The notes: generated from the letters alone by a model not told the origin. Counted from the whole stretch's first letter, positions 5,854 to 63,058 are shown. The stretch is DNA of 63,058 bases, filler included, from Bigelowiella natans CCMP2755 (GCA_000320545.1; 6 parts of 6 records of this genome joined end to end with filler, not necessarily neighbours in it); one strand, 5' to 3'. Numbers and translations: made by a program.

Positions 5854-6760
5854 GAGCTGCATAATTCCATACACCTTCCCTACTGTGAGACCGTCTGGGG
5901 TAGCCACTCCTCTCGAAAGAAGACTGCACGATGAAATCATGTAAAATCATATGAAAAGAGTCTCCTAATGTCATTTCTGCATGTCCTAGTCCTAATTTAA
6001 TTACGAATCTATTATTAAATTAACCAGTATCGCTGCTCATATCTAACAGCAGATATAGACTAAATACTAAAATTACAATAATCCGTAAGAAGATAGCGCT
6101 CTCCACACACTAGCACACATAGGCATGTATGGCTATCTCAACTAAACAAGCAAATTTCGAAATAGATCGATCATACGATACAACACGCATTATTAGTTCA
6201 TTGTATGTGTTGCACAAAATTGTCTTTATTCCAAACTACAACTGTAGATCTTACTAGCTTAGATAGACGGACGTAGTCTAGGTAGTACGTAGCACTCCGA
6301 ATCATGATCAGCATTAGAGACAGCTAGCTAGCTAGACAGCATGATGATGTGCACATGCGCTAGCAAGGGCCGCCGGCCATAGTAGTGTCAGCACATCTAT
6401 CTAGCTATGAGTAGCTACTCTGCGCTACAATCTAGCAATGCTAGAATGCACATAGCCATCACATCTGCATGCTCCTAGACTAGTGCACTGCACTATCGCA
6501 CGAGCTCTAGAGCTTTAGCGGTTGCTGCATGCAAATCGAATGACTTCGTCATTCAAACAGCTAGACAGCTAGCAAGGCTAGTTGAGCTAGCGAGGCACAA
6601 AAGGGCACGTAGCATTGCATATGCAAATGTAGTTGTTTCGATTCGTCGTGCGTGAAGCTGTGCATTTTATTTACCGTTCACATCGACTGTTCTAGTGTAC
6701 ATGGGCCAACAGTCATGCATCGTATCATGCAAGATCCATTTGTGATCATTAGGATGATGA

Positions 6761-9700
6761 CTATTGAACGTGTCTAATATCATGCTTCCTATTCAACAAA
6801 TGATTGATGTAATCTCGAGCACTTTCTTCTGTGATGGAGGATTGATATTTTTTTAACGTCTTTGGTAAGGTCTCTTTGTAAAACTTGAGTATTGCACCTC
6901 CTACAGTCATATCAACTACGCTTCTTGGTACCCACCCCTTAATGTCAGAAACCATAAGGTTTGTCATAGCGGTGACTCCTGGCCGCCCTGCAACTGGGAG
7001 CAAGATTAACCCATCTCCCGGTGCAGTAGCAGCCCGTACGACACCAGAAATAGGCTTATAATCCTTCGCGTTTACAGAACATGAAGCAACAGCAAATCCC
7101 CCCTTATATCGTTTCCACACTCTTACTTTGCATTGATCCCGACTAGAGATCGGACCGATCTTGTTTGTTTGAACGTACACCACATCGAAATGCGGTCCTA
7201 AGACATTGACAACCTTATACACTTTCTTATTTGAGTCCCAATCAGATGTTAACTTAGCATCATATATTAAGTTGAAGAGCCGTGTCGGTGAGGCCTGTAT
7301 CATTCCCATACCTTTGAATGCTTTGTAACTAACACCTGGAATATTGCCACCTAAAACTCGTGTGCTACCCTCAGCTTGCTTCTCTTGCCAATCTCCCTCA
7401 TTCGATTCCAACTCTCGCAAAAGGGCTTTCATTGATTTCTGTCCCATCTTAACCCATTCCTGCTCATCCAAATTAAGGCCGATTAAGTGCTTCTCACTGT
7501 AAATATCAGGGGCAGGTAATGATGCAGGAGATCTATTCACTTTTTTGTCTGACTTGTTATCATGATCATCCTTCTGTTCCTTTTGCTTTTTAGACTCTAT
7601 AGTGTCTCCGAACCGTTCCGAAACGTACATCTTTGCAAGTTTATAATCTGCGTTGGCAGGATTTTGCAACCACTTTGGAAAGCTTTCATCGTAGAACTTG
7701 AATAAAGCGTTTCCAAGCGTCATTTCAAGCACGGAACGCGGAATCCATCCCTTAATATCCGCAACCATAAAGTTCGTCATTTGGCAACGTTTTTCATCCA
7801 GAGGAACGATAACAAATCCTCCTCCCAGTGGGGTGTGTGCGCGGACAATACCACTGCGCGGTTTGCCATATTTGTTGGACTCAATGGAACATGCAGTAGC
7901 TGCAAACCCCCCCCCTTTGAACCGCTTCCAAGTGCGAATCTGAACCTGGTCTCGTGGTGATATTGGCCCAAGCGGATTCGTTTGAATGTAAAGAATCTCG
8001 TGGGATTGGACAATGCTCTCTTTCACTTGAAAGAACTTGTAATTCGCATTGTTTTTCTCTGTGAAGTCAGCATCCATGACGAGCCGGAAAACCACTTCAC
8101 AAGGGGCGTTGATAATTCCAGACGCACGAAATACTCTGTACTGGATCGAAGGCAACTTTCCGCAAAGCACTTTTATGCCTTCTGCGGACTTTTTCATTGT
8201 CCACCCATCCGTAGAGCGCTCAAAGTTTTCAACCAGCACCTTAAAACTTTCATTTGCTTTACGCATTAGCCTTTGATTTTCGGGGCTTATAGCAGGTATG
8301 CTTTTTGCTGGTATAACTGTAGTACTTGAGACTGGTGCCACAGTTACTTTCTCTTTGGCCTCCGAGTTGGGAGGGGCAAATCTCAGCGAGACAAATTTCT
8401 TGGCTTTTTCTGCGTCTCTATATTCGGGAACCTTCAGCCATGAAGGAAAGCTTTCATCGTAGAACTTGAATAAAGCGTTTCCAAGCGTCATTTCAAGCAC
8501 GGAACGCGGAATCCATCCCTTAATATCCGCAACCATAAAGTTCGTCATTTGGCAACGTTTTTCATCCAGAGGAACGATAACAAATCCTCCTCCCAGTGGG
8601 GTGTGTGCGCGGACAATGCCACTTTGCAATTGACCATATTGTTTCGAATCAATCGATGATGCAGAGGCGGCAAAGCCTCCTTTGTACTTTTTCCATGTTC
8701 GAATCTGAATTTGATCGCGAGGAGATATGGGGCCGACAGGATTAGTTTGAATATAAACTACTTCATAACCCGGAGCTACACTCTCGCGTATTTTGAAGAA
8801 CTTATAGTTGGCGTTGTTTTTCTCTGTGAATTCGGGATCAAAGACTAGGCTGAACACTACGTCGCACGGGGCATTTATAATTCCTAAGTAAAATAAAGTG
8901 AGCAAGAGGAGGCAATGCATTGAGATGGTAGTACCTGTGGCTCTGAAGACTTTATATGGAATATCTGGAAGCTTACCACATAAAACATCCACTTTTGAAT
9001 TCTTCTTTTTCGAGACCCACCCTGAAGTTGGCGATTCGAAGTTCCTCAGTAGAGTTTTCATACTCCGATCCGCTTGTCTTACCCATTTCTGCTGTGTTGG
9101 GTTTAATTTCACTGGTAGTTTTGCCCCATTTGTAGGATGGGAGCTTGGCGAAGGAGTTTCACGTGGATTGGCAGTTAATATTTTACGAGAGTGAGGCGAT
9201 TTTCGATTCCCGGCTGGTGGTGGTGCTGCAGGTGCCCCTCGGGATGACGATTTCCCTGCAGATCCAGACAACCATTCTACAGAAACAGTCCATAGAAATG
9301 GAAGGCATGCTAAAATAGACATTACCAGTGTTGCCCACTGTGTTCTAAAGGATGCAACATCTCCGTAACTCGTAGGATCCCCTGCAAGCATTATGCGTCC
9401 AACAGCATACGCAACAAATGGTAGGGACCCTAAAACCACACGCTCTTTCCATGCGTACGAAGCAGTGTGACTCATAAGAAGCATCTCCTGTGCTTCAATA
9501 TTTGCCTTAGATTCTATGGGTTTGACTCTCTTCCTTCGTCCGTTAGATTTACGATTAGAACCAGGCGCAGAACCAGGCGCAGAACCAGGCGCAACCCCTT
9601 GATTTATGCCGTCACTCTTCTTTGGAGTCAAATGTGTCAACAAATTTGCGTAGCACTCCCGGCATGTTCTTCCAGGGTCAGATTTATTGATAACCACCCT

Positions 9701-9868
9701 GTCATTCGAGCAAGAATCGCAGAAGATTTCGCCACATAGTCGGCAGTGGTGGCGCCTTCGAAATACAGTGAAAGGTTTGCGGCACTTCCAACATGCAGAA
9801 CGCTTGTAATCAGGAACCCATTGATCTTTCGTGCGGAAGCGAATGTGTTCGAGGGACTTGGTAGTCAT
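6761..9868 (-). CDS. FYVE zinc finger + two hydrophobic segments + three START-like lipid-binding domains; likely 51-nt intron at 8884-8934
   Basis: FYVE motifs WVPD...CWKC...RRRHHCRLCGEIFCDSCS...RTCREC. Three repeats carry the START hallmarks (W..K, GPIS(P/S)RD, SG(I/V)VRA, DIKGW(I/V)PRSV). First ATG is at 9868; the ORF track starts at a GTG at 9937. Confidence 0.9.
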   Translation of the reverse strand: MTTKSLEHIRFRTKDQWVPDYKRSACWKCRKPFTVFRRRHHCRLCGEIFCDSCSNDRVVINKSDPGRTCRECYANLLTHLTPKKSDGINQGVAPGSAPGSAPGSNRKSNGRRKRVKPIESKANIEAQEMLLMSHTASYAWKERVVLGSLPFVAYAVGRIMLAGDPTSYGDVASFRTQWATLVMSILACLPFLWTVSVEWLSGSAGKSSSRGAPAAPPPAGNRKSPHSRKILTANPRETPSPSSHPTNGAKLPVKLNPTQQKWVRQADRSMKTLLRNFESPTSGWVSKKKNSKVDVLCGKLPDIPYKVFRATGTTISMHCLLLLTLFYLGIINAPCDVVFSLVFDPEFTEKNNANYKFFKIRESVAPGYEVVYIQTNPVGPISPRDQIQIRTWKKYKGGFAASASSIDSKQYGQLQSGIVRAHTPLGGGFVIVPLDEKRCQMTNFMVADIKGWIPRSVLEMTLGNALFKFYDESFPSWLKVPEYRDAEKAKKFVSLRFAPPNSEAKEKVTVAPVSSTTVIPAKSIPAISPENQRLMRKANESFKVLVENFERSTDGWTMKKSAEGIKVLCGKLPSIQYRVFRASGIINAPCEVVFRLVMDADFTEKNNANYKFFQVKESIVQSHEILYIQTNPLGPISPRDQVQIRTWKRFKGGGFAATACSIESNKYGKPRSGIVRAHTPLGGGFVIVPLDEKRCQMTNFMVADIKGWIPRSVLEMTLGNALFKFYDESFPKWLQNPANADYKLAKMYVSERFGDTIESKKQKEQKDDHDNKSDKKVNRSPASLPAPDIYSEKHLIGLNLDEQEWVKMGQKSMKALLRELESNEGDWQEKQAEGSTRVLGGNIPGVSYKAFKGMGMIQASPTRLFNLIYDAKLTSDWDSNKKVYKVVNVLGPHFDVVYVQTNKIGPISSRDQCKVRVWKRYKGGFAVASCSVNAKDYKPISGVVRAATAPGDGLILLPVAGRPGVTAMTNLMVSDIKGWVPRSVVDMTVGGAILKFYKETLPKTLKKYQSSITEESARDYINHLLNRKHDIRHVQ
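7677..7849. repeat. 173-bp sequence identical to 8445-8617 (START2 vs START1 C-terminal halves)
   Basis: Direct base-by-base comparison; offset 768 nt (256 codons). Confidence 0.95.
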
Positions 9869-10021
9869 ATCTACACTTGTATTTTGTTGTTGACTACGGG
9901 CCAGAGAGCCATCAAAGGGGGCTGCACATTTCACCACCTGTTGGATACAGACTGAAGGAAGTTTTGGACTTCAGTCCCTTCGCATCCAATTTTGAGACAG
10001 ACAGGTGCACATAATTACTAA

Positions 10022-10121: not shown

Positions 10122-13100
10122 ATGTCGGAAATTGGCGAGTCGGAGATCTCATCATTATTATCATCATTTTCTTATTTTTGGTGAAATATCATGCAGTCGC
10201 ATCCAAGAAAGAACCATTGTTTTTGGCGAAGTATCACGAAGTAGTCAGCAAGAAAGTACATGCCTTTATGAGATCGTTAGGAGATTATCGATGGATCTCT
10301 GGTTACACTCTTAAGATTTTTTGTCATGAGCAGGCTGAGCAGTCACTTTGGCATACACGTACTTCTTCGCGCCATGTCCCCTTGTAGAGGGGAAGGCCAA
10401 TCTCGTGAGGAAGAAGACCACAGCGTGAAGTCTTTACCCCGATAAGTCCTTATCTGCGATGATGACTCTTGTTTCAGGTTTGAGCAACCAAAAAGGAAGA
10501 GTGGAATATGTTCTGATGAGTGTGTTGATGATGATGATGTTCAAGAGTTTGTTCCGGAAGCAAAGCCTCTGATGAGTGTGTTGTTGGTGATGATGTTAAG
10601 AGTTGGTTCCGCAAGCAAAGCCTCTCCGGGAATTCCTTCAGGCCCAGCCCTTCTGCGTTCCCCTTGATCGACTTGTTCAAGAGCAAGGCCTGGAGGAAGA
10701 GGAGGATTTCTTGCAATTCTTGAAAGATACTGTTGTTGCACCATCACCGGAAGCTTCCTCATTCTGGAGTTCGCAGGTACTTGATTCCCCCCCTTCTTAC
10801 TTTGGTTATTGGAAACATAAACATTGTTTTCCTATCTCAAAGGAGGGGCCATTGTACAAAGAAGGGACCAATAAATTTTCGGAGGTATTATTAGCACAAT
10901 TAGGCTATCTCTCCCCCTGATCATAAGTCATATATTTAATTTTATCAGGGAATGTATATGATAGCAATGAGGTCAATAGATCAGTTGGTGGGGTCCAAAT
11001 CGGGCAATATTCTAGCAAAGGGCTTTCGAAGGTCAACATACATATATTCACGGTCTCTCTTCTCTCTCTCTGAGGTTGTGGTTTGCAGAATTGCAGAGGG
11101 AAAAAGCAGCGGTTCTCAACTCTTTCCATTCCTACAATCGGTCCAGAACAATGAGATGGTGATTGTGTTGTGTTTCATACTGCTGAGCCATTAGTAGCCT
11201 TCCTCACATTAATGGCTAAACTCATTAATCTTTTTGAAAGGTGCTACAGCTGTTGCAGAAGCCATGGGAGGTGAATAAGACCATAGTACGGATATATATG
11301 ACTTTGTTTCACTGGAAGTTCCTATAGGTGCTACTTAATCGGTTGGGAGACGGATTGATGGTTTTGCTGTTGACAAAATCACTTATATTTACTAAGCTGC
11401 CAAATAGATGCTTCCTCCAGGTCGTACTAGAGGTGGTTTTGAGTCGTCGTTAATCTATTGGACCAAAGTCAATTACAGATTCTTGAGTCATCGTTAATCT
11501 ATCGGACCAAAGTCAATTACTGATTCTCCCTGGTTTTTCAGATAGCTGGAGTGCCGGTTTCTAAATATCGTCAAGAGAACAGAAGCAGCATTTATGTCCC
11601 TTTGTCCAGCGAAACGGAGAATTTCCAAAATGATGGTCAAGACGCGTGTGAAGACAACCAAATAGGAGGTGGTTTGCAGATTGAAAAGAAGAGACCATCG
11701 CAGAATAAAAGCAATCATAACATTAAGTCTCTCAATAACATTTGGTAAGTCTCCACATCTCGTTTTGGTGCTATATTATTCCAACCTAGTAACCATTTTC
11801 TACTGCTACTACTCAGTTTAAATCGAATGTCACTTTTCTATGGACAATTTCACAATCACGGTCGCATCAATGTCGGCCTTCCTCCTAATGTGAGAATAAA
11901 TGAGCCTACTATTTGAACAATCTCAATATCGTTTGAAATCTCAACTAGCATATTTCCAAACTTAGCACATTCTCTGCCAATCAAATCCATCGCGAAACGG
12001 TGCCAAAAAGGTTGTTGCGACTGTATTGTCTCCATAGGTTGTTCGTATTAGTAACCTAATGGTAAATAATTAATACACGGATTTATTAGGTGATTGGTCG
12101 GATTATTTTCGATCTAACGCTAGACTAAATATTTAGGTGATTGGTCGGATTTTCGATCTAACGCTAGACCCTAAAGGCAGGCCGAAGCAACTTCCTCAAG
12201 TAGTACCAGCTTACTAGAATATCTTCCATTTCTTCATCCTCATCTCCAATGTTGTATTTGTCCAGAGGCTGAAACGGGCAATCGGACTATTCCAAAAAAT
12301 GATATCCAATCACCGCCACTGCCAATATGCGGGTATTTTTACGAGCTGTTGTGCGACAATGACACAACTACAATCATCACCACCAATACCACCACCATCC
12401 TCGACTGAGTCCTCCACGAAGAAGCTCCTCCCAGATTCCTCCTGTCCTACTTCCAACTCAAAAGTAGTAGTGGTAGTAGTAGTAGTAGTAGTAGTAGTAG
12501 TGATAGAAGTAGTAGTAGTAGTAGTAGTAATCATCTCACCTTGTTCGTCTTTGATTATTTTGGTCATCGCGGTATTATTTATGTGTGCTATTATTCTTAA
12601 TATTATTATTACAGCCTCCATGTTGTAGTTCCTTTGAGAGCGCATCAGGTATGTTCGAAAACCTTTCAATGAAAAACCTACTCAATCTCCACACACCACC
12701 GCAAAAAGTGGCAAGCTTCATAAGGGAAGTAATCATGAGGATCGTTCCAAAGCAGCTTTGGGGAGGCAAAGGAAACTTTAAAATCTTCCAGAAAACAATA
12801 CACAAATTTTTGAATCTCGGGAGATACGAATCTCTAACAGTACACGAGATTATGCTTAACGTTAAGGTTGGCTCTACTATTTTCCTCATGCTTGAATTCA
12901 TTAATTGAGCAGCACTGAATACTACTTGAGAATGTAATGATGATCTTAGGTCACTACATTTGATTGCTTCAAAGCCGTACTATCGAATGCTGGTAAGGAA
13001 GAGGAGGAGGAGGAGGAGGAGGAGGAGGAGAGAAAGAAGCTATCACAGCAGGCAGCAGCAGCTCGGTATGCATGTATATATGCATGCAGTATAGCCCTTC

Positions 13101-13553
13101 TGAACATTGATTCAGGAATAGGATAATGATGATCATGGTTGTGACGATGATGATATGTTTTGATGTGTTTAAGGAATGCATCATCAACACGGAAGAAGAA
13201 GGAGAAGAAGAAGAAGAAGAAGAAGAAGAAGAAGAAGAAGCATGGAGCTAAGTCACATCGAGACTTAACGCAGGTGATGTGTGGTTGTTGACCCATCATA
13301 AGAGTGTCGAGTAGTAGTAGTAGTAGTAGTATAAGTAACACTGAGATTATCGAGTACACCACCAACTCGAACTACTTCAAATAATTAGTAGTAACACTGA
13401 GATTATCGAGTACACCACCAACTCGAACTTCAAATAAATTACTCACGTGTAGACCATAGTCGCTTGGATGAAATGGCTGATGGATGACTTGGTGTTGCCT
13501 CTTGTCCGGACCAACTTCTACTGCACAGAGGGGATGTAAGGATGGAACTGTAT

Positions 13554-13587
<34 letters not shown>

Positions 13588-14112
13588 CTCACACCGCATC
13601 TGTCTAGGTGTTCTTCTGCTGTCAGAATAAAAGCATCCTATAATAATACTACGTTTGTTCTTTAGGCCGGACAAAATGAAGGTGCTCTACTACCCTCGCC
13701 AAGTGTGGCAACAGATCCAGCGAATGTGATGATTAATACTTAATAATAATAATGATACAGTTAATACTTTCCCCTAAACTGCGTACTTCATAATAATGCA
13801 GATACAGTTAATACTTTCCCCTAAACTGCGTACTCCATAATAATGCAGATACAGTTAATACTTTCCCCTAAAATGCGTACTCCGCCTCCCATCAATCCGT
13901 GATCTTGGCAGCCAACAGATGCTTGCATCCCTCCATCACCCTCCATCATTCCTTCATCATCCATCATTTGTAGGTACTGCAAACAAGGCAACCTAGGCTT
14001 GCAGCTGCTAACACCTGAGGAGAGTAGTTCGATCTTGCTCAATAAAAAGAAACGATGTTTGGGGTAGTAGTAATAGTAGTAGTAGTGGTAGTAGTATGTA
14101 GCCATGTATCAT

Positions 14113-14144
<32 letters not shown>

Positions 14145-14400
14145 ATATTTTATGACAATTCAGACCGTTATTAGTTATTAATATATTTGTGAGCAGCAGC
14201 TGCAATGTCGATAATTGGGTAGCGTTCTTGCTTTGCTCTGCTCTGCTCTACATATTTTAGGTTTGGGAAGCTAAGGTTACTGCCCCGGTTAAATGCAGGT
14301 ACGGTGAGGCCAATCACAAACATGAGATCACGGACAAGGTACTACTATGCTTTGCTCTCTCTTCTAGTCATTTGTCAGGAATGGATGATAAGATATGGTG

Positions 14401-14431
<31 letters not shown>

Positions 14432-14583
14432 ATCCTATAATATTCGTGATAAAAATACGCTGACGACCCAACACCATTGGCAACGAATATGATAGATTCA
14501 GCAGCGCTCTACATCAAAGATGCTCCAAGCATTTTCCAGAGGCGCTGGTACTACTACTACCACTACTACTACTAGTACTAGTG

Positions 14584-14614
<31 letters not shown>

Positions 14615-15837
14615 TGGTAGTGGTAGCGGTAGTATTAGCATCGAAACAGAACACCTTGTGGTTAATATATATCATGAGTAGTATCATATATTATGATTAT
14701 TATTTCAAGCGCTCAATAATCATGCTCTCTCACTCTTAGAAGACGACCGAGAACAAAAATGAAATGACTCCTCATGTGTCCTTGTTTCAAAGAGCTGGTG
14801 TTAAGCGTAAGCGTAAGGTACTGTATATATTCAATGATGATGATGATAATGGGAACAACCCCAATTGATGATGCTATCTCTCGTAAATACAATATCTGAC
14901 TTCTTATCTACCACAAAACAATGACGTAATAATAGGAAGCTGCTACCTGCTCAGAAGCTCCAAAGGAATTTTGGTCAGTCAACAGCGAACTACAAGACGT
15001 TTTTGAAGTCCTTAAGTTTGAGTACAAGGTTTGATTCATAAGCAGCCTGTTGTATATTAATAATAGGCATCATCATCACAGATAGTATCAATATGCTGGC
15101 CAACATACAAATATCATTATTTTTCTATCACTACTACAACTACTGCTACTACTGCTACTTTTCATAGAAGAACCCAGAGTTGCTTGGGGCATCGACTTTT
15201 GGATACGAAGACTTTCACCAAAGGTAAGAAGTTGTATGCCAACACATTACCAACAACAACAACAACAACAACAACCACCACCAGGAGCACTCACAGTCTT
15301 TTCGGCCACACACACACACACACAAACACACAAATATATGATGATTATCTTTTTGCAGATTATATTTGCATATATGTAGTTATGTGATTATTATCCTCCT
15401 TTGCAGATATTGGCAGTTTGTGACATCTGTTCGTAAGGAGCATTCAGCAAGGAGTTTGGGGGGGAAGAAGCTTCTTCTTCCTGAAAAAGTAGTCCCCGAG
15501 GTGTTTGGCGCCTCGTGTGATGTGAGCAAGTGCTTTGACACCATAAAAAAACAGAAACTTGTTCAGATCGTCTCAAAGGTTGTATAATATTGCTGAAATG
15601 ATACAAGTAATCTTATCTGCCAAACAATAATTGGGGAAGGGCTCTTAGTGTCATTGGGAAGAACTTACTATCAAATATATGAACAATAGGTTTTGAGATG
15701 CAGCAGCTATATTTTCCATCGTTTCTGTATCATGTAAGACCTCCTTCTCCATTCACACATTGCTGTGTTTTAATTTACTTTAGATGGTGATGATGATGAT
15801 GATGATGATGATGGTGATAATGAGACAGACAACTATC

Positions 15838-15881
<44 letters not shown>

Positions 15882-16334
15882 CATTAGATCCCCTGCTCCA
15901 TGGCAAAAATGCTCTGGTACTACTCGTTATAATAAGAACTTTAAAACGAACACAGTAAGAATCCCAAGGACTGAATTTTTGGAAGTACTGAAAAACACCT
16001 ATAACACTGCAAAAGCACAATAAATATCATCATCGTTGCCATGGCTTGATTTGCGATTATAAGTTCAATATTGCGATCTATACCTCTTAGTATTTTTATA
16101 TATCCTGTCTATTGCGATCCATACCTCTTAGTATTTTAATATTTCCTCCTGTCGTGAAGATTTTACTCTCAATCATGATCATAATGATGATGATGATGAT
16201 GATAGTGACAATGCTAAATGTAGACGGAATAAAGCTGCGAATCCAGTACTTGACGTTCGTGCAAACTCCCACTGAAACAGTGGACTTCATAGAACATGTC
16301 AGGACTCGTGCCAGTGCGTGCAAGCCAGGTACTG

Positions 16335-16366
<32 letters not shown>

Positions 16367-16434
16367 GTTACTTCTAGTAGGAGGTGGTGGTGGAGGCGGT
16401 GAAAAGATAGAATGCGAGAGAGGGTGTGGGAAAT

Positions 16435-16481
<47 letters not shown>

Positions 16482-18901
16482 TATTGCACTGAGCAGTAGG
16501 TTTCTCTGATCTGTTTCCTCTCTGTTCTTAGATCGTGTTGTGAGTTGGGTTGGTGATTATCATACTGTGAATAATGATAATCATAATAATAATCATAACA
16601 CTAGGTTCCATCGTCATAGATCTTGTGTACAAGCAACGACTAAGCAGAGAGCAGATCCTGGATCGAATTCAAACGCACATATACGCGAATGTTGTCAAAA
16701 TGGATTGCAGGTTCTACCGCCAACTGCATGGAATACCACAGGTGCTAGTAGTAGTAGAAGTAGTAGTAGTAGTTGTAATAGTAGAAGTAGTAGTAGTAGA
16801 AGTAGTAGTAGTAGTAGCTGTAATAGTGAGAGAAGGCTCTTTGTGGACAACAAGCACGTGCTAAAATGATAAATACACTACTTTGAAGCTGGGGCATTGA
16901 AAAGGAGGGGTAGAACGATAAGAGAATTTCTGAATCCAACCTACCACTTCTTAGGGTTCAGTCATCTCTGCTTTGCTATGCTGTTCATATCTTGGCGATT
17001 TCGAAAGAGAGTGCTTTGACTTTAAAGATCATAAGAGGAGGTTGAGAGGGGGGGTAAAGCGAAAGCACAATGCAGAATCAGCATCCGAAGATTATAACGC
17101 CGTTGATGCTGCTGCTGCTGCTTTAAAACGAGGAGGAGGAGGAGGAGGAGGAGGAGGAGGAGGAGGAGTAGTGAAGCGGCGGAAAAAGAGACGAAGGGGG
17201 GCAATATACAAACGGGTTGTGCGGCCTAGCAGCATTTACCAACGTTCGATGTCCGCATCATCCTCTTCAAAGGAAGGATCTGCGCCGTTATTATCATCAT
17301 CTAACCAAAAAGAAGTTGAACAAGTGACGGCAACGCATCATCGTCTAATGGTGAGACAAATGGATGACTATCTATTCCTGAGCACAGCAAGGGTGGAAGG
17401 TTCTACGTTCGTGAAAAAGATGCATCAAAGGCACCCATCTTATTGCATAAATGTAAATCGATCCAAGACTATAGTATCTGAGGAGGGACTTCTTCACATC
17501 GATGATCATGGTGATGATAATGATGATCATGATAATGATGATGGAAATAATGCAAAGGAATTCAAAAAGAAGACCTCAAGGTTTCTTCCTTGGAATGGCC
17601 TCTTGATCGATACCTACACATTGGAGGTAGTAAGAGTCTTATGAAGCAAAAGAATAGTTATGTAGTTTGAGCTCTAGTTTTTGAGTAAATACTGAAATCC
17701 TTGTTGTTTGTATCACCGACGTTTTATGTCGTGACTTAATCTTTCCTCCTCCCTCTTTAGGTTCGTGGAGATTATTCTCGATATTTGTCCTTCGATCTAC
17801 GATATACACTCACTGTGGAGGCTAGCAGGCAGCCTGGAGAAGCTCTATTGCAGGTGCTCACAGCGCTACTTATAAAAAGGACATATTTTGCCATCATTTC
17901 GGACCCCCACTGTAGAATCATCTTTTGTCGTGAATACATTACTTTACCTCTGTGTGTTATTATTATTTCCCAAGGCGACTAAAAGATTTATTTCTGTGTG
18001 TTATTATTGTTTCCCAAGGCGACTAACCGATTCGTGATTTCGAAGTGTCATCTCATCCTTCTTGATGGGTCAATAGTCAATAGTTTCTTCAGCTGCAATA
18101 GCAAGAATAAGTTTAACCACATTCTGATTACGATATTTCAATGCAGAAACATCAACACGAAGAGGACTGTGGTGCTCAATGTCTACCAGATGTGTGCGTT
18201 TGCTGGTATGTAATGATGATATGAGAAAAACCACCACAATGCACCTGAACCGCCCGAGAATATGTTCCTAAATCTCAGCTATCAAGATGATCGTGTACGC
18301 AAAAGCGGCGAAGATGGCACTTGTTAGTCATTCCCCCCTTTTACAAATTGGTCGCAAGTATGGAATGTTGACATTTTGGTGTCTCTTCCTTTTTCAGAAA
18401 CCTTCATTAGCAAAGAAGATTGCTAGGAGTGCAGTCCAACATCTCATGCAACGGATCAAGACTGTGTTCGAGTATGTTATCGTTGGAGAAACTCTCCGAT
18501 GTATTCTCTCGTAATCCTTAATTTCGTCGTTTTCATTTCTTAGACCACGCATAAGGGGCCAGCTCGGCCTGGATGAAGAGAGGCGGCCGTTTCTTCCCCT
18601 AGCCACTTATGAAAGTCTACCAAAAGGCTCTTTGTGCTCGATGACAAGAGATGAATTGCAGTTTTGTGGGGCATGCGCATTCCACAACGTCCTGGTTTCG
18701 AGGAAGATAAAGTTTCCGGAAGCAACTAAAGGTGAGCTACATGTATGATGTGGATCTCAACGCATGAATTTGGTTCTGTGCTCAGAGTTGGCCAAGTGGA
18801 AGAGCGATATTGTCCGTCGATTGGACGATGCAAAGGGTCTCAAGTTAAGCATTCGTGCAGCAATACATGCTAGTAGATTAATACTCAATATGTGCAAATG
18901 A
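10122..18901 (+). CDS. TERT: Telomerase reverse transcriptase catalytic subunit, many exons; 5' start uncertain (homology clear from about 10603), stop TGA 18899-18901
   Basis: TEN/GQ: GNILAKGFR; PWE|VLLNRLGDGLMVLLLTKSLIFTKLPNRCFLQ|IAGVP. CP: HRHCQYAGIFTSCC. QFP: VASFIREVIMRIVPKQLWGGKGNF...KFLNLGRYE. T motif NFYCTE (about 13513-13530) and YYPRQVW. Motifs 1/2: LRLLPR...VRPITNM. A: SCDVSKCFDTI. B': YRQLHGIPQ|GSVISALLC. C: LMVRQMDDYLFLS. E: FLPWNGLLIDTYTLEV|VRGDYSRY. CTE: VVLNVYQ and ELQFCGACAFHNVL. Confidence 0.95.
13753..13881. repeat. 47-bp tandem repeat, about 2.7 copies, in a TERT intron
   Basis: Unit gatacagttaatactttcccctaaactgcgtactycataataatgca repeats at about 13754, 13801 and 13848. 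Confidence 0.9.
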
Positions 18902-18969
18902 GATCATTTCGCGAAATGTTACCACATCGATCAAATGCAAACCTGTTGATTACTAAAGTAAGAATGTCC

Positions 18970-21300
18970 AGTTCAGTGTCTAGCACACTGTATCTTCTGC
19001 AGTTTTTGCAATTTGCATTGTCAATCATGATGGGAAAATATGAGGCTGGCTAGCTGGATGCAAATGAAAAGCAGACCCTAGAGACAAGGCATCTAATGCA
19101 AATGTTGCGTGCACATGCATGTGTCTAATGCCAGACAATGTGACGCACACTCTGCACATTCAAATGATGCGCACATGATGCTGTCTAGGCGTGGTGTGCG
19201 TGCAATGCTAGAATGGACACAACGTGCTGTGGCGCACATGTGTGCACCCTCCACCACTAATGGATGGACTGTGTGCATGAAATCCTGTGTGCACGTCGCG
19301 AATGCTGCACTGTAGCACTGTAACAATTTGCACGCACCCAAACTAGCAAAAGAATGTAGAAATGCAAGCCAGTGACAGTGATGAGTGTCCAATGAGCTGA
19401 TGATGATTGTGCTAGAAGTGCAGACCTGCAGACATGTGCGTCCGTGGTGTTGCCCATCAATTTTTTGGACACTTTTTTGTGTTGTGCATCGGCTGTCCAC
19501 ACTAGCTAGTTGGTGCAGCTCATTGTCACTTGCGATGTTGATCGTGCACATACAATTCTGCATTTTTTCCATCATTCTTGTTGTCAGTTTTTGGAAATCA
19601 AGTTTGTTTCAACAAGCATGGGACATGAACACACTGACATTGTGACCGCAAAGAAAGCGAGCAAGAGGTGTTTCAATTTTTGGTTCAATTGCCTTTGTTG
19701 TTTGGATTCTTCCTTTGAGCCCTTTGAGGAGAAAGAAGAATTGAAACGCAACAAGCAAAGATCACCAAAGAAGAAGCAGGGGGCTTGCTAGCTTGAAGGA
19801 AGAATTGCAAACAACAAGCGAGTGAACAAAGTGTTTCCAAAAAGCAAGTGGGAGGTTTGAAAGAAGAATGAAACAATGAGCTAGCAAGCGCCAGAGCGGG
19901 AAAATTGAAGATTGGCAAAGAAGGCCATTTTTCCAGCAACATTTCAATTTCTTCGCTCATTTTAGTTCTTCTTTGAGGCCCTCTTTTCACTTGGCGTATC
20001 AGCAGTTCAGCAGTCCGCTCGGTGGCCTTGATCGAAAATCCTGCCGCTGTGACAGTGATCACAAGACAATGGACTGGTCAAGCTAGCAAGCCCCACTAGC
20101 CCAGCTAGCCAGTCCAGTGGCAACCCACGCACTAGACGTCATTGGGTTCATTGGCCAGCCAGCCAGCTGAGCGCGTGTCAGAGTTCACCTCATCTGGTTC
20201 ATTTGCGAATGAGCTGCTCAAGCCCTTCCAGCCTTGCCAGCTTGGGCGGAGCCAATGACAATGCTGGAATGTGAGCTAGTGCACGTTGCAGCTTGTCACA
20301 CGACACGTGCTAGCGTGCTAGAACGTCTGGACCGTCGTGGGTTTGTTAGTTTGTGCATGGGAGCTCTTCGTTCAATGCTGCTGCTAGCAGGACAATTTGG
20401 CGATGCACAAGCACAGCTAGACCGTGCACAACTGGACAAGCTAGCAAGCGACAACACCCTGGATCCTGCCTTCTAGCCTTGCGCACTTGGTGCATCCACG
20501 CGAGCCCGAGCACAACGTGCTGGCAAAGAGGAAGGGCCCATGCTGGCATGCCAGCATGGGCCCATGCCAGCATGGACCAGTGGAAAGCACACTCTTTGAA
20601 TCGGTGCTTCACGGTCCAGGCGTGCGTCAGCCAGCACCGAAGATTGGATTGCGCCTCATCATGACCAGAACAATGGACATGGTGATGGCATGTGACATTG
20701 CGTGTCTACAATTAGACAAGGTGGACTGAATGACCTGATGAGAGCGTGCATCGCCCAATGAGAGTGCACAACGAGTGACGAAACATGCCAGGTGTTCAAA
20801 CCATTCCAGCATTCCAGCACTCTGGCACGTTGCAACGTTGAACATTGCCATTGCTGAACTGAACTGAGCATTGCCAGATTGAGCCAGCTAGCCAGTGACG
20901 CTGAACAACGTGCGCAAGAACCACGTGGGAGACGTGCACTTGTGAGCAACTGCGACTGCGAGCAAAAATCGCAACAGGACCTGTCAGCAGCGTGCACCCT
21001 CTGCTGGTCTGGCCCTGCTAGCCTGCTGGCCTGTTCTGGTGTTGGTGGTGATGTCAAAACTGGCTGGACTAGTGGTGTCAGCAGCTCCAGAGTTGGTTGA
21101 GACCATTGAACATTGAACATTGAATTGAGGATTGATGCAAATCCACACGTGCAAGAACCACGTGGGAAACAAGCGTTGCATGTGGTGGCGCCTGCAAACA
21201 AAAATGGGTCTGAATCCTGGACACGTGCATTTTTTTGCAATTGCGAAGAAACACTGAAAATTGGACCTACCATTTTGGCACAATTAACGACTGAGGACAA
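18970..21300. other. TpA-depleted, TG/CA- and CTAG-rich intergenic block, probably a heavily mutated repeat or pseudogene relic
   Basis: About 34 TpA in 19081-21240, of which about 22 are in CTAG. Six-frame ORFs are nearly Tyr-free and rich in Cys/His. Internal short repeats (gaaccacgtggga x2, attgaac tandem) and a 30-bp palindrome are present. No transposase or RT motif recognised. Confidence 0.7.
20534..20563. repeat. Perfect 30-bp palindrome gggcccatgctggca|tgccagcatgggccc
   Basis: The sequence equals its own reverse complement. Confidence 0.95.
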
Positions 21301-21676
21301 ATTCGAGCAAAAAAGTGCCTTGTTTTGCTAGATGAACGTGAGTTAACTAAATTTGGTACCGATCTCGCCAATGGCTGATCGGCCACTGTGGTGTCGAAAG
21401 GCCAATTTCGGCCTTCGTGAAATTAAATTCAAGGAATGCAATTCGCCTAAATCGAGCCATGGTCTAGAGTCAACGGTAGCCAAACGAAGCTGAAAAGTGA
21501 AAAGAGCCTTTACTACTTTAGGACGCTTTGCCTTTACGAGGAATTCCTATGCCGAGGTTTTTTCTGTCAATGGAAGCGAAATTCACAGTTTTTTGGCGAT
21601 TTTAGGGAAATTTCGATGGAAATTCGGTGCACAGTAGGAAAATCTTCGTGCAGTATCATCTGCGCAGATTAGGAAC

Positions 21677-27832
<6,156 letters not shown>

Positions 27833-30468: not shown

Positions 30469-30909
30469 CAAGCTAAAACTTCTACCTTGCTACTTCTTAA
30501 GGCGGAGGCATTGTTCTTTCCTGATAACAACGAATCGCCATTTGATACCGTCCTCTTGACGCTCAACTCGTTAGGCCGCCACGGGGTATCATCGTTCTGC
30601 CAGTTTTTATGCCATAGTATATAACTATTTTACATATTATTAAATGTCTGTAAGCGTGTGCGTGTGTGTGTGTGTGTCTGTGTGTGTGTGTGTAAGGTAT
30701 ATGAAATCCGATGGTGTATTTTTATTTTTTCTTCCAAAAACAAGGTTGAATTGAACCACTCTGTGTCGGCGCGCTTTCTGTCGGAAAGCAGCGGAAACAA
30801 GCTGCCGGCAGCAAGTAGTGATTGTCTAGCAAATGCTGCACCGGGGCAAAATAGAGCCGAATATCCAGATGGCGTGCCTGTTAAAATTCGGTTTCTGAAC
30901 GTGAGCTAG
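28592..30909 (+). CDS. Unknown multi-exon protein, 5' truncated by linker
   Basis: A series of GC-richer, AG/GT-bounded open exons between microsatellite introns, e.g. ETLQRKYLRSKAFRDACRR, FKIDLLPESYRKRVQIVIPAFLDDSKLHVGGIL, KDHGMEEIAAITLNATRADL and VELNHSVSARF...VPVKIRFLNVS*. No family recognised. Confidence 0.6.
28756..28968. repeat. Perfect 73-bp inverted repeat (arms 28756-28828 and 28896-28968, 67-bp spacer)
   Basis: The arms are exact reverse complements (gcggcaggaatcgag...cttcctccaac / gttggaggaag...ctcgattcctgccgc). Confidence 0.95.
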
Positions 30910-31782
30910 GCATCATTCATTACTGCGATGCGGTGCCCATATGCATTTAATGACTTCTTCCTCGAGCATGCATGCATGCATGCATATATGTGCTCGTTGT
31001 CGCGCTAAAAATGTCAAAATTACATTGCACGCTGCCTTACAGCAAGCTTCGACCTGCTAGTCAGCACCATTGCGCGCGATGATGACATATGCGGTTGTGG
31101 ATCGATGAGAAACAGAACGCATGCAAGTTATGGCACATAACCACCTAGCTTATATTAGTCGTAGACGCGCGACTAATTTTGGGGCGCCATATTGCAACTA
31201 TATCCGTGTCGAACAGTACGCGCAGCGGCACGGTCTTCTCTTTCGGCAGCCTTACATGTTCAAGTGTTTGGCATCGTCTCTGCGGTCCATGCGATGGCTG
31301 TCAACTGGTCATGCGCTAGCATGCACGTGCAATAAAGCATTGCGCATTTGAACATATGTTAGAAACAAACATACAGATGCGCAACATGAGCGTTGTATTG
31401 CAGTCGCTGCTTTGCACAACTCTATGTGACTGACTATATCTAGCTATCTAGCTTATTGTATCTAGCTAGCTAGACATACTGCTAGACTGCATCGTCAGCA
31501 GAATAATGGCATGCAAGGAGGCATCATCACCAGTGCACACGCGCACACACACATGCAGCTCTACATACTCGCTACACTACGCATGCACCATCGCATGCAG
31601 TCATGCATGAATGATCTCACAGCACAAATAGAGGCAGGGAAATGAAAACAAAGGCTTTATTCGCAAGAAATTGGCCGCTGCTATAATGCTCAAACAGCGC
31701 CGTCGTGCGCTGCGCTTTCGAAAGAAATCTACGGACAATGTATAGAAGATGATGCTCTTTTTACTTCTTCTTGTTGCTGCTA

Positions 31783-48921: not shown

Positions 48922-50219
48922 TCATCATCATTCTAGGAGGAAGAAGTATCCATTCATCGAGCCTTTATCAGGTCATAGTAGTAGTAGTATTAATTTGAGA
49001 GAATGAATATCCACCACCACCATCCATCACTACCCTTTTCACCTTTGCTACTATGAGACGCGATGATGTTAACATAATGAAAAGAAGATAATAAGCAAAG
49101 TACAACTAGAAGAGAAGGAGGAAATACAGAGGAGAGAAACCAATTATAACTGAGTTTTCCCTTGTTCGTTCTTCTTCTTTCAACGCGTACACGTGGATTT
49201 TATTAGAAGCAGAGAGAAAAGATGGTATAGTAGTGTATGGAGTTCCTGCAAAGCGTATCAAGCCAATAGCACCGCATATGAATCGTCCCTGGTGGCAGAC
49301 AAAATCGAAGCACTTGCAAAACCAAATGAGTAATAACAATAATAATTATAATAATAATAATAATAATAATAATAATTAATAATAATAATAGCAATACTGC
49401 AATGGATATGCATTCTATTTGGACAAAGAAGAAGAAGAAGAAGAATAATGTTGGTTTTTAGTTTATATTTACTATGGTATCACTCTAATATTGTTATTTA
49501 TATTTGCTTCTGAACAACATGCATCTCCTTTCTGCATCATCATATTGATTGTGCAAGTAATCAACCAATCAATAGTTGCAATATCGAAGCAGTATTTACT
49601 TATTTACTTAGCTACTTACTTACTTACAGCATACACATATTATATTCATTATTAGCTGAGGAAGACAGAATGGCTAGAATTGAAGAAAGGTATTTCTCAA
49701 AGCCAGACGATTATATGGAAATTGGAGGAGGACCAAGGTTTATTCACACTATTCTGCTGCTGTCAGTACTAATGCATGCTAGTGGGAATGTGGATCCACT
49801 ATGATTTACTTGGATCGCTCATCAACATCACACACAAAAGCCCATCATCTACATTTAAACAAGTTTCACTGATAATGTCTTCGCTATTTTCTAATTTAGA
49901 TGAGACTTACTCATACACACACACACACACACGCACACACACACACACACACAGAGGATGGATGCGAGCGAAGAGATTCAAAGATGATTTCAATCCTGAT
50001 GAAACAAGAGAAGAAGTTATTCGCCGCAAAATCTTGGCTAGACAGAACAAGACTTGGCCCCCGGTGTACCCTCCAGGGCAAGTTCCGGTTGTGTATCTAG
50101 AATCAGCAACAGACATCACACGGAGGATGACGAGTATCACGTCAACAACAAATTCTACAACAATTGTTCCCAGCCCAAAAAAATTCATCATCATGGACAC
50201 AGACAGCATACACCCGTAG
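45953..50219 (+). CDS. Unknown multi-exon protein with a possible N-terminal hydrophobic leader and an SH3-like segment
   Basis: Exon-like segments: hydrophobic TTTGAILILLAM; DPLDIAKKARKVRKNPVYR; GSVVEVIGQHDGFVKINQPYVGWI; AEEDRMARIEERYFSKPDDY; last exon GWMRAKRFKDDFNPDETREEVIRRK...HP*. Exon chain not fully resolved. Confidence 0.45.
48612..48848. repeat. About 118-bp tandem duplication (2 copies), intronic
   Basis: gaagaatcataaatttctttgtcaagtc...ataaattgattcattta starts at 48612 and again at 48730. Confidence 0.9.
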
Positions 50220-51513
50220 TGATCAAGATAAAAAAATCCCTTTGTTATTCATCTTCACTTCTAGATCTGAGAAATACGATCTAACTGATCAAGTGATGAT
50301 GCTTATGAAATGTCTGATTTGTCAATAATGACGATTTGATTTGTATCTACATTCGAGAGATCCATTATCTTTCATCATTTCGTTCGTCTGTTGTTGATTG
50401 AAGCGTAGCTGTGAAAAGCCGCGGCCATAGCGCTCAAATTGCACTTGACATTTCTGTGCGCGCTGTCATGCTGTGCATGCTCACCCACTCATCATGTATA
50501 CTAGCACACACTTGCACACATGCGTGAATTGTGCCGCGCTGCACGGCATGCACACTGCTAGACTGACATGCATGCAACGTGCATGCACATGTGTGCATGC
50601 TGTCTAGACATCTACATCAGCAGCAAAAAACTCAGGTCTGAATCCAAACAACAACTTCGCGGGAGATCGAGCACCCCGCCATTTTGTCATCCGTCGTGAT
50701 GTTCACGCCGAAGGTGTTCGTCATCTCAAGGTGCTTGTGCCACATGCAGTGCGTCAAGGCGATCATCCACATGCAGCTTTGTCGATCTGCTAGCATATAG
50801 TAGACTGGAACCATGTGGCTGTGGGTAACCATTGTTCCACTCTACTAGCATTGTTGCGCGACAAGTGGAGAGATAATCATAGAGATACGTGAGCAATGCC
50901 GTGTGCACAATGTCAATTTGCATCATTGCGCCTCATCATTACCACGGTTTTTTGCCAATAGATGAACGCTGTGTTGCATTCTTTTTGTGCAGCCAACACT
51001 CGTTGCATATGTTGCCGCTGCTTGCACCGCATTGTTGTGACAACATTGTAGCGCGGTGCGGCAAGTGATGTACAACTGTACAACGATACACATGAAGGCG
51101 CTAACCGCATGCAGCAAACTTATAACACAGATTTGCACACATGCAGCAGGATCGACTGCACAACAAGTTCATGCATAAGCCGCGTTGATCACATGTGGCT
51201 AATAAACATCGCATCGAGCGTAGCATGCCTAATAATTGGAAAAAAGTTAAGATTAAATATGTATCTAATTGCATCATGTGAACTGACTTCACACGTACGT
51301 GCATTCGCAAACTGAAAGCCATGCAACGCTGAATCACGGCACACAGTTACACCTCTTATTTGTTTGTTATTACAAAAAATATGAGTGCAAAGCCTAGATC
51401 AATGCATTTGTAACGCGCAAGCGCTATTGCTCAGCATGCATATAGATTCTGTTGCAGATGATGTGCGTAGACACATTCAAGACAAACCTGGGAGGAAATC
51501 CTAACAAATATTC

Positions 51514-52401
51514 TTACGATCTATTCAATGACATCCATTGCAGAAACATTAATGTAGTTGCAATTTTATTGAAGAGCAAACTATTGTCTGTAGTAGAGCT
51601 CATTACTTGCAAAAGGGTAGACTGTTCGCATGCTCCACAATTATTTACATACATTTTTATTTATTTTTCATTTAAACTTCTATTTTTCATATTTTATGAT
51701 AGAAGGTGTCTAATAAGTAGACTTTCCTCTTGATTAATGACATAGCTCATTTAAAAGCCGTATTTTGATAAGCAGGATTCTCAAATATTAATATATAGCT
51801 TTCTCGTATAGCTTTCATTGACATAGCTACTCGCTATTGATAAAATCCTTTTTGATCCTTTTCCTTTCTGCTAGAGCAGAGCGATATAGCTTACAATATT
51901 GATGGACCTTAACGAAGTTCATTAGTCAGAAAGGCAGACTAGCATAAATATTTTAATGTAAGAATTGTGATAATTGCAATGTTGAAAATTAAAATAAACA
52001 CCAGATATCTATGCTCATAGGTAAGTTTTTGAAATGCGATCGAAAAAGTAATATATGTATATCAGGCTAACCTTAGATATGAACATCTTCTGAAAAAGTA
52101 TTAATGAATTTTCCTTTCCAAAGTTTCTCAACCTAGATACAAATATGTCCATCATATCGGCAGCAAAAACTATTGGTGTTTCCGGTATTAAACTGAGCAT
52201 TGTGTCAAATTATGAGAAATCATTTTAAGCATATTACTACCCCTCAACGAATTCCCTCCTGACCTAAAGAGCAAAAATTAAATTGAACATTAATGATTGA
52301 AATTTCAAAAATTAAAGCAAATGTACCCTTTGATTTGGCCCGTTTTCAAATGATTCAAGCATTTTGCCAAGGCTTTTGTGGACCTATGTACATATATGTA
52401 C

Positions 52402-52735: not shown

Positions 52736-54036
52736 GCACACACATAATACACATGTATGTAATTGCATTTATCATGCCTTGCCCCCCCCTCCCTAACCCT
52801 AACCCTACCCCCCCCCCCCCCGCCACTCTGTCCCTAAATATGTTGGGTATGTGTGATGTGACTAACTATACCAAGGAAGCCATACACATTATAGTTATTA
52901 TTAAACAGGCATCAGTATTATGAATAGGCTTATGCTTTTATTCATTTCAATTCACATTTTAATTCACATGCTTTTATTTATTTCAATTCACATTTTAATT
53001 CACATTTTAATTCACTTACAATTGGAATTTTCTCATGTCTTTGCTGAGTCACTAGAAGAGTAATTTGGAATTAGATTTTCGTGAATTTTAAAAGTTTATC
53101 ACGTATGTTTATATATGCATTTATATATCATCTATTTATCTCTTTAATTTATCTGTTAGAATGTTGAAACAGCAAAGCAAGGTTCCGAAGCCCATAGATC
53201 AAACCAGAATTCTTTACCTATATTCTTTCCCATCAGTGTCATTGTTGCCACTATTATCGCCAGCCCATGTGTCTGCTGAGTTTTGGCAAATTTCTCTTTT
53301 TCTGAGATAATAGTGTAATCCCCTTGATGTTGCTTTTGTTGTAGCTGTTGAATCGCAGGATATACATTATCATCTGCAGATGTTCCTGGTAACTCTCCTC
53401 TTTTCGCACCGATTTTATGAGCATCTTCACTACGAAAATATCTGGGCAATAAATTGCTTTTCTCATTTCTTTCTAAGATTGAATTTCTATTTAATGCATG
53501 AAATTCTTCCTGCGTTCTTGCATTTGTTGTTGTCTCAAGAAGCCTATCTAGAATCTTTGACGACGAAGTTGAAGGCAGCACAGCAGGGGCTAATTAAAAA
53601 TTAGATCAAGAATACAATTAATTATTATTTACTGTGGATAATAGCTAATTGTTTATTTAGGTTCTTGCATGCTACTTTCAATAGAATCTTCATTCTCTTC
53701 TTTGATGTAGCGTGTTCTAAAAGTAGTATCAAAAATATTCTTCAGAAGCCATTCATACTAATATTTCATAGCATAAATATGAAGATAAGAATAATAAGGA
53801 ATATTTTCGCTCGTAATTAACTTTAGCATTGCTGCTCTCGAAGATCCAGCAGTAATGAATACTGATGACCACGTTTCTAGAACCACCTAATGTAAATCAT
53901 AAATTAAGTACTGATAATCACTCACCGTATTCAAAAAATATGTAATTTAAATCTATTACTTGATGTGCATCTAAGTCTCCTGTCTCCAATAGAATCCGCA
54001 GACCGATTTTTACAATCTTTTTTAAGATATCTTATA

Positions 54037-59085: not shown

Positions 59086-59140
59086 TGCGTGTTTGCGTGT
59101 TTATGCATGTGCTTCTGTGCTCGTTCCTACTCACGTACAA

Positions 59141-59403: not shown

Positions 59404-59450
<47 letters not shown>

Positions 59451-59654: not shown

Positions 59655-60153
59655 CGGGCCGGGAGATATAAGCGTCGCAGCATGTTTGCACATAGCGCGC
59701 AATGCCCAGCTAGCCAGGATCGGACACGATAAGCATGTACAGCATCATTCATCAAGCAGTTCTTATATGCAAGACGTGGCCATCTAGCCACGGATTTTGC
59801 ACGTGCCCCTGGATGAAAAGGTTGACATTGCATGCCATGAATTGCATGTGATGTCACGCAAGCTGGCAATTGCCGCCGCACGCCATATCTCACAATCTGC
59901 GACTGAGCGCGGCCTGATGGAACGTCAAGTCTAGAAGTGTTCAATGCAGGAGGAGCAAATGACTAGCACGACGCTCGCTTCCATCGCTTCCATCGGACAC
60001 AATGCCTTGATGACCAGCGCAGGCTCACATGCTTAAATGTCTGCGGCATGCTCTCGATTATAGCAGCAGCCATGCTACGGTAAACGTGTCATTTGCGCAA
60101 ACCGTCGCATCGTGTTGTCACGCATGACTGTGATGTGATGGGACAGACAAGCT

Positions 60154-60483
60154 CTAATCCTCATCAGAATCCGGAAGATCGTCATCGTCATCTCCCATGA
60201 AGAGACTTTCATCTTGCACCATTCCTGCTCCGCCTTCCGCCGTTTGCGACTCCGTCTTTTGTCCACTTCCCCCCGCCTCGCCATCCTGAGAACAGCAGCA
60301 GCAGTAGCGTCAGAAGAAGTGGAAAAAGAGGGAGGGGAATGGCGACCAATATCATCACCACCATCACTATCATCATCATCATCATCGTCGTCGTCGTCGT
60401 CGTCGTTTGCTCGTTCCGGACTCACCTGATTGGTCTTTTCATTCTCCTCCTCCTCATCGCCGTAGTTGGCGTCCTCGCTATGC
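60154..60483 (-). CDS. Acidic 3' end of a gene, resembling DFRP-type C-termini (RWDD1/Gir2 or ZC3H15/Tma46)
   Basis: Two exons: HSEDANYGDEEEENEKTNQ|DGEAGGSGQKTESQTAEGGAGMVQDESLFMGDDDDDLPDSDED*. The family call rests only on the DESLF motif plus acidic tail. Confidence 0.35.
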
Positions 60484-60584
60484 NNNNNNNNNNNNNNNNN
60501 NNNNNNNNNNNNNNNNNNNNNNNNNNNTTAATTAATTAANNNNNNNNNNNNNNNNNNNNNNNNNNNNNNNNNNNNNNNNNNNNC

Positions 60585-62695: not shown

Positions 62696-63058
62696 TCCTG
62701 GCATGAGGGGTGTAGAAATTAGGTTGTTATTCTTTTTATCATAACATCTACTACCAATTGTCTCCTACCCCCCTCTTCAAATTGGTAGATAAACTCGCAA
62801 TCTTGGCCGCCGGCACCAAGGACCTATCCTTACCCAGACTCTTGTCTGACTCTACTGGGCCAGCAATGTACGCAATCCATTGTAATGAAGTCTAGCTATG
62901 AGCAGCATCAATGATTTAGCATCCACTTAGAAATGTGAGTCTTTGCTTCATTTTGACGCATCATTTTGACACAGCTAGTGTGTCAATCCAAGCTAAGCAA
63001 AAACCAGGCACGTGACACGACGCAGCAATCTTGCCACATGCTCGCTAGCACCGGCTAC

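Follow-up and report, generated by a model that had tools for sequence, protein, structure and literature searches.

In kinetoplastids, the modified thymine known as base J marks the regions where RNA polymerase II (Pol II) terminates, and in fungi repeat-induced point mutation (RIP) changes C to T, creates TpA dinucleotides and requires duplicated DNA. The closest described system comes from Bigelowiella natans, in which a mutation-accumulation experiment, reported in a 2026 preprint, found two integrated viral regions mutating at about 6e-7 per site per generation (10.64898/2026.01.13.699255). The preprint reports 230 TpA mutations; those in the viral inserts are almost only T/A>C/G, all fall on TpA, and occurred in 11 of 15 lines, and every line with virophage mutations also had mutations in the nucleocytoplasmic large DNA virus (NCLDV). 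The target is a transcriptionally silent viral insert of 186 kb, 124 TpA-poor clusters of at least three consecutive 1-kb windows are described, and the authors propose a defense against foreign DNA and name a B. natans ADAT2 candidate (10.64898/2026.01.13.699255).

Here we analyze one 63-kb window of B. natans DNA (the whole stretch, 63,058 nucleotides, to which all counts below refer), which is made up of six contigs with N spacers between them that appear to belong to one scaffold. Six zones in this window have lost TpA to very different degrees. We give a probability of roughly 0.6 to the reading that they are scars left over the long term by the TpA>CpA/TpG mutator of B. natans on host DNA that is likely untranscribed and outside promoters, with TAG probably resistant; judging from composition, the process that acts on the viral inserts is likely the one that made them. 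The two cases share the species and the loss of TpA with gain of CpA/TpG, and likely also a silent target, but here the targets are host intergenic gaps behind ordinary genes. The exemption of TAG and CTAG and the position in 3' flanks are features of the present zones that do not appear in the main text of the preprint, which has no match for "CTAG", "terminat" or "context" and no analysis of untranslated regions (10.64898/2026.01.13.699255). We found no other relevant paper on TpA in Bigelowiella or on TpA with CTAG in intergenic DNA.

RIP, too, is a dinucleotide-specific hypermutation that leaves a compositional scar, but it runs in the opposite direction, as the B. natans zones lose TpA, and its targets are duplicated, whereas zone 2 is single-copy up to 20.8 kb and zones 1 to 3 have no long shared alignment in the window. 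Kinetoplastid base J and dinoflagellate 5-hydroxymethyluracil (5hmU) resemble the zones in their association with gene ends, convergent boundaries and repeats (PMC11071213) and, in one dinoflagellate species, in a preference for the T of TA and TC (PMC11572971). The differences are that B. natans genes lie in both orientations, each with its own promoter, that the strongest scarring lies at a distance from the 3' end, and that a modified base is known in those organisms whereas in the B. natans zones it is sequence composition that has been read.

Six zones behind gene 3' ends

Zone 1 (6174..6673) is a CTAG-rich gap between convergent spliced-contig ends with partial loss of TA. Zone 2 (18967..21350) is a saturated, TpA-null tract that extends from the 3' end of the telomerase reverse transcriptase (TERT) gene to the promoter of the next gene, the two genes being in tandem. 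Zones 3 (30800..31650) and 4 (50300..51450) are convergent 3' gaps, the former CTAG-rich and alternating in purines and pyrimidines (R/Y) with weak TA loss, the latter rich in TGCA and CATG with partial loss; zone 5 (59655..60075) is a short stop-to-stop gap between convergent genes. Zone 6 (62860..63058), the beginning of a 3' flank that reaches the window end, is suggestive only. A preliminary description had placed all six zones downstream of stop codons, four of them between convergent genes, and on five contigs, and we confirm each of these points: the convergent zones are 1, 3, 4 and 5, established by spliced contigs for zone 1, by an exon map for zone 4, and by reading frames and splice signals only for zones 3 and 5, and the contigs are separated by the N spacers.

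The same description had given all six zones a "CTAG-only" pattern, and this holds for zone 2 alone. In that zone (19.0-21.3 kb) the observed/expected ratio (o/e) is 0.27 for TpA and 0.10 for TpA outside CTAG, and 24 of the 39 TA lie inside CTAG, 10 of these 24 being GCTAGC, next to 38 TGCA and 20 CATG. The other five zones show partial loss only, with TpA o/e of 1.18, 1.00, 0.65, 0.52 and 0.63 in zones 1, 3, 4, 5 and 6 and with 25, 38 and 40 non-CTAG TA left in zones 1, 3 and 4; in these five, TA has become scarcer except where C and G flank it, and CTAG is enriched; zone 6 has no TGCA. The fraction of T at A_A, G_A and T_A sites is 0.03-0.08 in zone 2 and 0.52-0.55 in promoters, with the other zones in between at 0.19-0.35, whereas C_A sites are spared, with fractions of 0.34 in zone 2, 0.70 in the other zones and 0.52 in promoters. 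Zone 2 further shows a roughly fourfold decay of YCG, and the short zones show loss of CC. The signal described earlier is real; its uniformity was overstated.

To set the zones against the rest of the window, we used seven gene 3' intervals whose limits were drawn at stop codons or at the ends of RNA contigs, independently of the signal. They contain 68 of the 172 CTAG in 7,095 of 62,618 bases (P = 2e-21), and without zone 2 they contain 42 of 146 in 4,711 bases (P = 7e-14). Compared with 500 dinucleotide shuffles of each interval, CTAG is in excess in five of the seven 3' intervals and in none of seven promoter intervals, which together hold 4 CTAG [observed versus shuffled, with the number of shuffles reaching the observed count: zone 1, 16 versus 4.3 (0/500); zone 2, 26 versus 2.6 (0/500); zone 3, 11 versus 3.3 (0/500); zone 4, 7 versus 3.1 (12/500); zone 5, 4 versus 0.8 (3/500)]. 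The ratio DTAH:(DCAH+DTGH), pooled over the 3' intervals without zone 2, is 151:609; promoters give 150:291 (P = 9e-8 for the difference) and intron-rich DNA gives 606:874 (P = 2e-24). The divergent promoter spacers had been called rich in TpA and in long intact (TA)n, and neither holds: TpA o/e is 0.76-0.82 in the four spacers that were named, and their longest TA run has two units. The long arrays are indeed spared inside genes, where all 10 of them (9-19 units) are located.

The zones are not copies of a single repeat family, a possibility that the earlier description had itself named as fatal to its reading. Among the matches listed for zones 1 and 2 against the rest, the longest inter-zone match is 20 bp, and no long repeats were found inside zones 1 to 4. 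Zone 2 is not an assembly error, since one DNA run matches it with no differences. Under the 1-kb thresholds of the preprint it is the only zone to be picked out (15 sliding windows), zones 1, 3, 4 and 5 falling outside them, and no zone forms a three-window cluster, the longest run of such windows being two, whichever of 10 phases is used.

Context of the TpA loss

We fitted equilibrium, transition-only, context-dependent models conditioned on the R/Y skeleton, with zone limits near those first described; the fits assume equilibrium, and their outputs are pseudo-likelihoods rather than measured rates. The fitted T>C change at TAH over baseline is 31 in zone 2, 8.2 in zones 5 and 6 together, 4.9 in zone 1, 4.1 in zone 4 and 1.7 in zone 3. 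Elsewhere it is 1.5 in the 3' flank of a gene of the DEAD-box helicase type, close to the value of zone 3, 0.5 in promoters, 0.4 and 0.6 in intron-rich DNA and 0.8 in an exon. The scar is thus absent from promoters and introns, as had been claimed, with a fitted TAH rate of 0.4-0.6 times baseline there and no CTAG excess in promoters. A model trained on zone 2 ranked as the next windows zone 4, zone 5, an exon, zone 1 and zone 4 again.

Zone 2 and the pooled other zones, fitted independently, give the same rule, with a factor of 0.01 for TAG and of 0.42-0.49 for CTA. A block by the 3' G fits better than a block by the 5' C by 34 and 12 log units, simulated data led back to the rule that had generated them in all 10 runs made, and no later model variant that fitted a TAG factor put it above 0.25. 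If the TA term is removed, the fit in the short zones becomes about 107 log units worse. On the favored reading, T in TAH would change to C (equivalently, A in DTA to G on the opposite strand), and CTAG would survive because it alone among the TpA tetramers reads TAG on both strands, and hence would be resistant on both. Decayed (TA)n may account for long runs of R/Y alternation, one of them the CATG array near 30.97 kb; the pyrimidine-purine steps in alternating runs (CA 125, TG 116, CG 49, TA 26) would suit an expansion of (TA)n followed by decay. Zone 3 has an R/Y alternation of 0.65.

Other sources of the pattern were tried. A polymerase-eta-like TT>CT change improved the fit modestly in the other zones and not at all in zone 2, and deamination at CHG (CAG>TAG) as the source of CTAG was worse than the TAG block by 18 and 14 units. 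The latter bears on the suggestion that the zones reflect chance, the picking of the window, or ordinary decay of 5-methylcytosine (5mC), in which deamination at CG and CHG yields TGCA, CATG and CTAG. The zones were chosen by eye, two 3' intervals are not significant and the loss of YCG in zone 2 is real, all of which would suit this suggestion, but we regard it as highly improbable: the stop-fixed intervals remain significant without zone 2 for both CTAG and DTAH, models that lack the TA term or replace the block by CAG>TAG are worse, and C>T decay makes TA and cannot remove it.

The scar is symmetric between strands (DCAH 163, DTGH 166), and a bias is seen in no zone, on which ground we rejected transcription-coupled or R-loop editing. 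Surviving TA in zone 2 number 8 in the first 433 bp past the 3' end and 6 in the 1,850 bp that follow (P = 0.002). The deepening of the loss away from the 3' end, together with the lack of strand bias, is fitted better by silent DNA than by a terminator mark, so that a terminator-specific, base-J-like form of the mark proposed in the preliminary description is not supported. The mutator measured in this species on a silent viral insert and the start of the scar past contig ends do lend support to the other part of that proposal, a scar of mutation on silent DNA.

A terminator-specific modified base (5hmU, 5-formyluracil (5fU) or a base-J-like T) on TAH past poly(A) sites and in silent inserts would act through an oxidized T that pairs with G and leaves T>C. 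Such pairing is described for 5fU, dinoflagellate 5hmU is enriched at gene-array boundaries and repeats (PMC11071213), its preference, in one species, for replacing the T of TA and TC (PMC11572971) recalls the present target, the scar begins directly past spliced-contig ends, and a rate as low as that of the viral inserts seems a by-product rather than a defense. We nevertheless consider this explanation quite improbable, given that the signal is not centered on the termination site, that 5hmU in Breviolum has no sequence preference (PMC11071213), that the target described in the preprint is a viral insert of 186 kb, and that we found no paper placing TET/JBP or 5hmU in Bigelowiella. The fuller version, in which oxidized thymine in TAH is laid past the poly(A) sites of most genes and in silent inserts and a second, sequence-specific mark protects CTAG, is equally hard to credit. 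If it were true, the anti-viral hypermutation would be a secondary consequence of a base-J-like mark for silencing and termination in Rhizaria, and silent chromatin could be mapped by nothing more than TAH loss and CTAG gain in the sequence.

Transcript coverage and flanking genes

Coverage of RNA type comes from two runs, taken to be RNA by guess and containing GT..AG joints, and was examined around zones 1 and 2. Spliced contigs around zone 1 end at 6169/6173 (plus strand) and 6674/6752 (minus strand), and those before zone 2 end at 18,966/18,946 and restart at 21,644 in one run, the ends from the two runs agreeing within 4 bp (6169/6173) and 20 bp (18,966/18,946). The scar begins about 30-80 bp beyond these ends. 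RNA-contig cover is missing over 19.1-21.6 kb, apart from a repeat bin, and over the middle of zone 1, which is no proof of silence; that the spliced contigs stop right before both zones is a weak hint of it.

The DNA depth of zone 2 is that of single-copy sequence up to 20.8 kb. At its right end lies a diverged short direct repeat with a period of about 237 bp (20896..21205, repeat family D3), whose DNA depth (259-743, compared with 95) and partly matching sequence in other contigs point to a few more genomic copies; its RNA-type cover is faint, and it matches no identified family. A gapped pattern from this repeat found no B. natans DNA among metagenome contigs, and marine metatranscriptome contigs gave seven exonic differences, two of them in TpA, which are unpolarised and uninformative. 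In the center of zone 2 (19600-20000) there are many A/T runs and R/Y alternation is low (0.38-0.40), the flanks being different, and this center probably derives from a different precursor sequence. The zone also holds a perfect 17-bp inverted repeat with arms 281 bp apart (19780-20094) and a perfect 30-bp palindrome (20534-20578).

Zone 1 is flanked on the left by a short-chain dehydrogenase gene (4814..6173, plus strand), whose first exon (4.88-5.40 kb) matches P0001, B. natans Bigna1 56258, at 100%, and on the right by a FYVE and START domain gene (6674..9982, minus strand), which encodes FYVE and three START stretches (6761-9970). Over about 170 bp, two of the START repeats are nearly identical (near 7.68 and 8.44 kb), which suggests a recent internal duplication or conversion; this protein as a query of metagenome contigs returned one unrelated locus (L001) and no B. 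natans DNA. The TERT gene (10300..18966, plus strand, with the Pfam domain Telomerase_RBD) is intron-rich, is spliced in two runs and stands directly upstream of zone 2, the strongest zone. We treated it as a single gene, with spliced contigs covering 10.5-12.3 and 17.2-18.97 kb, and since TERT spans about 10.3-18.97 kb, the exons at 10-12 kb are its 5' part. The next gene (21644..27832, plus strand), which we take from its motifs to be DEAD-box helicase-like, has a spliced contig starting at 21,644, and its promoter (21.35-21.64 kb) forms the right limit of zone 2.

A minus-strand gene ends near base 75, and plus-strand genes end near 30.62 kb and at 50,219. The right flank of zone 4 is an intron-rich minus-strand gene matching P0127 (51827..57250, last exon at 51,830), which supplied the exon map and carries four intact (TA)17-19 arrays; one of its introns has a few telomere-like CCCTAA units (52790-52810). 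The window further contains a long minus-strand gene, a plus-strand sugar transporter gene, a minus-strand APP1-domain gene, with a 54-bp tandem repeat of 5.1 copies at 99% identity (41533-41806), and the ends only of three more genes. Many introns contain tandem duplications of 36-119 bp in two or three copies, and the window has no Rfam match. Beside zone 5, the C-terminal frame of the minus-strand gene enters TA-poor sequence (60075-60200), and the loss of TAA and TAG stops could have extended it.

Origin, chemistry and meaning

The mutator would act on likely untranscribed DNA outside promoters, which in this compact genome would be the gap past gene 3' ends. An alternative is that the zones have two origins, with zone 2 a degenerate foreign insert under the defense model of the preprint and the short zones selected or slippage-built 3' elements, CTAG/GCA-rich and alternating, with little mutator input. 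Zone 2 differs from the rest in dose, YCG decay and GC, has its share of GCTAGC and carries a small dispersed repeat, while the short zones keep a TpA o/e of 0.5-1.2 and have an alternation and a CTAG excess that transitions fail to explain. Against this stand the context factors common to zone 2 and the short zones and the cost of removing the TA term in the latter. Searches that bear on a foreign origin of zone 2 found no relative either: five frames have no Pfam match, and a 222-aa frame, the one searched, has no relative among 133 candidates or in viral contigs; the zone is also mostly single-copy. With TAA almost gone (12 TAA), long open frames are no surprise, and we do not favor zone 2 as a coding or viral remnant. 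Two separate origins thus appear distinctly unlikely.

Several observations weigh against the mutator reading that we prefer. The evidence base is one window with seven 3' intervals, two of which are not significant: zone 6 (3 CTAG versus 1.4 shuffled, 74/500) and the 3' flank of the DEAD-box-like gene (27.83-28.49 kb, cut by a gap), which has no CTAG excess (417/500). In the scan with the model trained on zone 2, zone 3 comes 15th among the 22 windows listed and zone 6 is not among them, and the dose of TA loss bears no relation to gap length. CTAG is three to four times as frequent as predicted for a passive refuge (24 versus 7.8 and 39 versus 9.6); added terms for this excess (TTA>CTA, a stabilized C, or a CTAG sink) fit about equally well, and the TTA>CTA term would conflict with the preprint, which places all mutations on TpA. 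R/Y alternation is 0.60-0.65 in zones 1, 3 and 4 against 0.47-0.49 elsewhere, or about 0.6-0.7 against 0.47-0.51 when the first 450 bp of zone 2 are counted with these zones, and CC is depleted (rho 0.46); because transitions cannot make such alternation, and CC is depleted, more than one process is at work. Strict silence is weakened because contigs from another locus in both RNA-type runs include a CTAG-rich tract, the CTAGCTAG-rich tract with loose ends at 6338 and 6428. The direction of change rests on the equilibrium models and the preprint, since the one DNA run on zone 2, whose contigs drop rare variants, has no differences and no mutation was observed. The other-locus contig at these loose ends also carries CTAGCTAGCTAG tracts, 85 letters from one end.

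As to chemistry, episodic deamination of adenine by a trans-acting enzyme is our tentative first choice, at slightly less than even odds; an oxidized-thymine mark that mispairs with G is possible though doubtful, and other routes are unlikely. Deamination is favored by the ADAT2 candidate of the preprint and by the way in which hits coincide across lines: no line had virophage mutations without NCLDV mutations, which suits an episodic enzyme acting in trans. The A-to-I editing of ADAT2/3 (Tad2-Tad3) resembles the fitted change in its strong T/U at position -1 and its A>G outcome. Fungal A-to-I editing differs in that it acts on mRNA and slightly prefers C/U at -2, with A/G at +1 (PMC9600606), whereas C at -2 blocks the fitted change here, and this opposite preference weakens the deaminase step as a further point on the negative side. 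Two B. natans proteins combine Sel1, an N6-methyltransferase and a specificity domain (PMC4738411, supplement) and are a lead as candidates for CTAG protection only; the available text of a paper on giant-virus methylation does not mention CTAG, and we found no on-target paper on methylation in Bigelowiella. We also found no prior description of the TAG exemption, and the scar on host 3' gaps is most likely the work of the known mutator.

The only report that we found on the B. natans mutator reads it as immunity against foreign DNA. If host spacers behind housekeeping genes such as TERT bear its scar too, the targeting rule would be "silent, non-promoter DNA" and not "foreign DNA", and this would change which guide must be sought. 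The TAH-not-TAG rule would be an enzyme fingerprint that can be applied to the 230 published mutations and used for screening candidate enzymes, and the CTAG-to-DTAH ratio detects tracts of about 0.5 kb that are overlooked by the published 1-kb, three-window rule.

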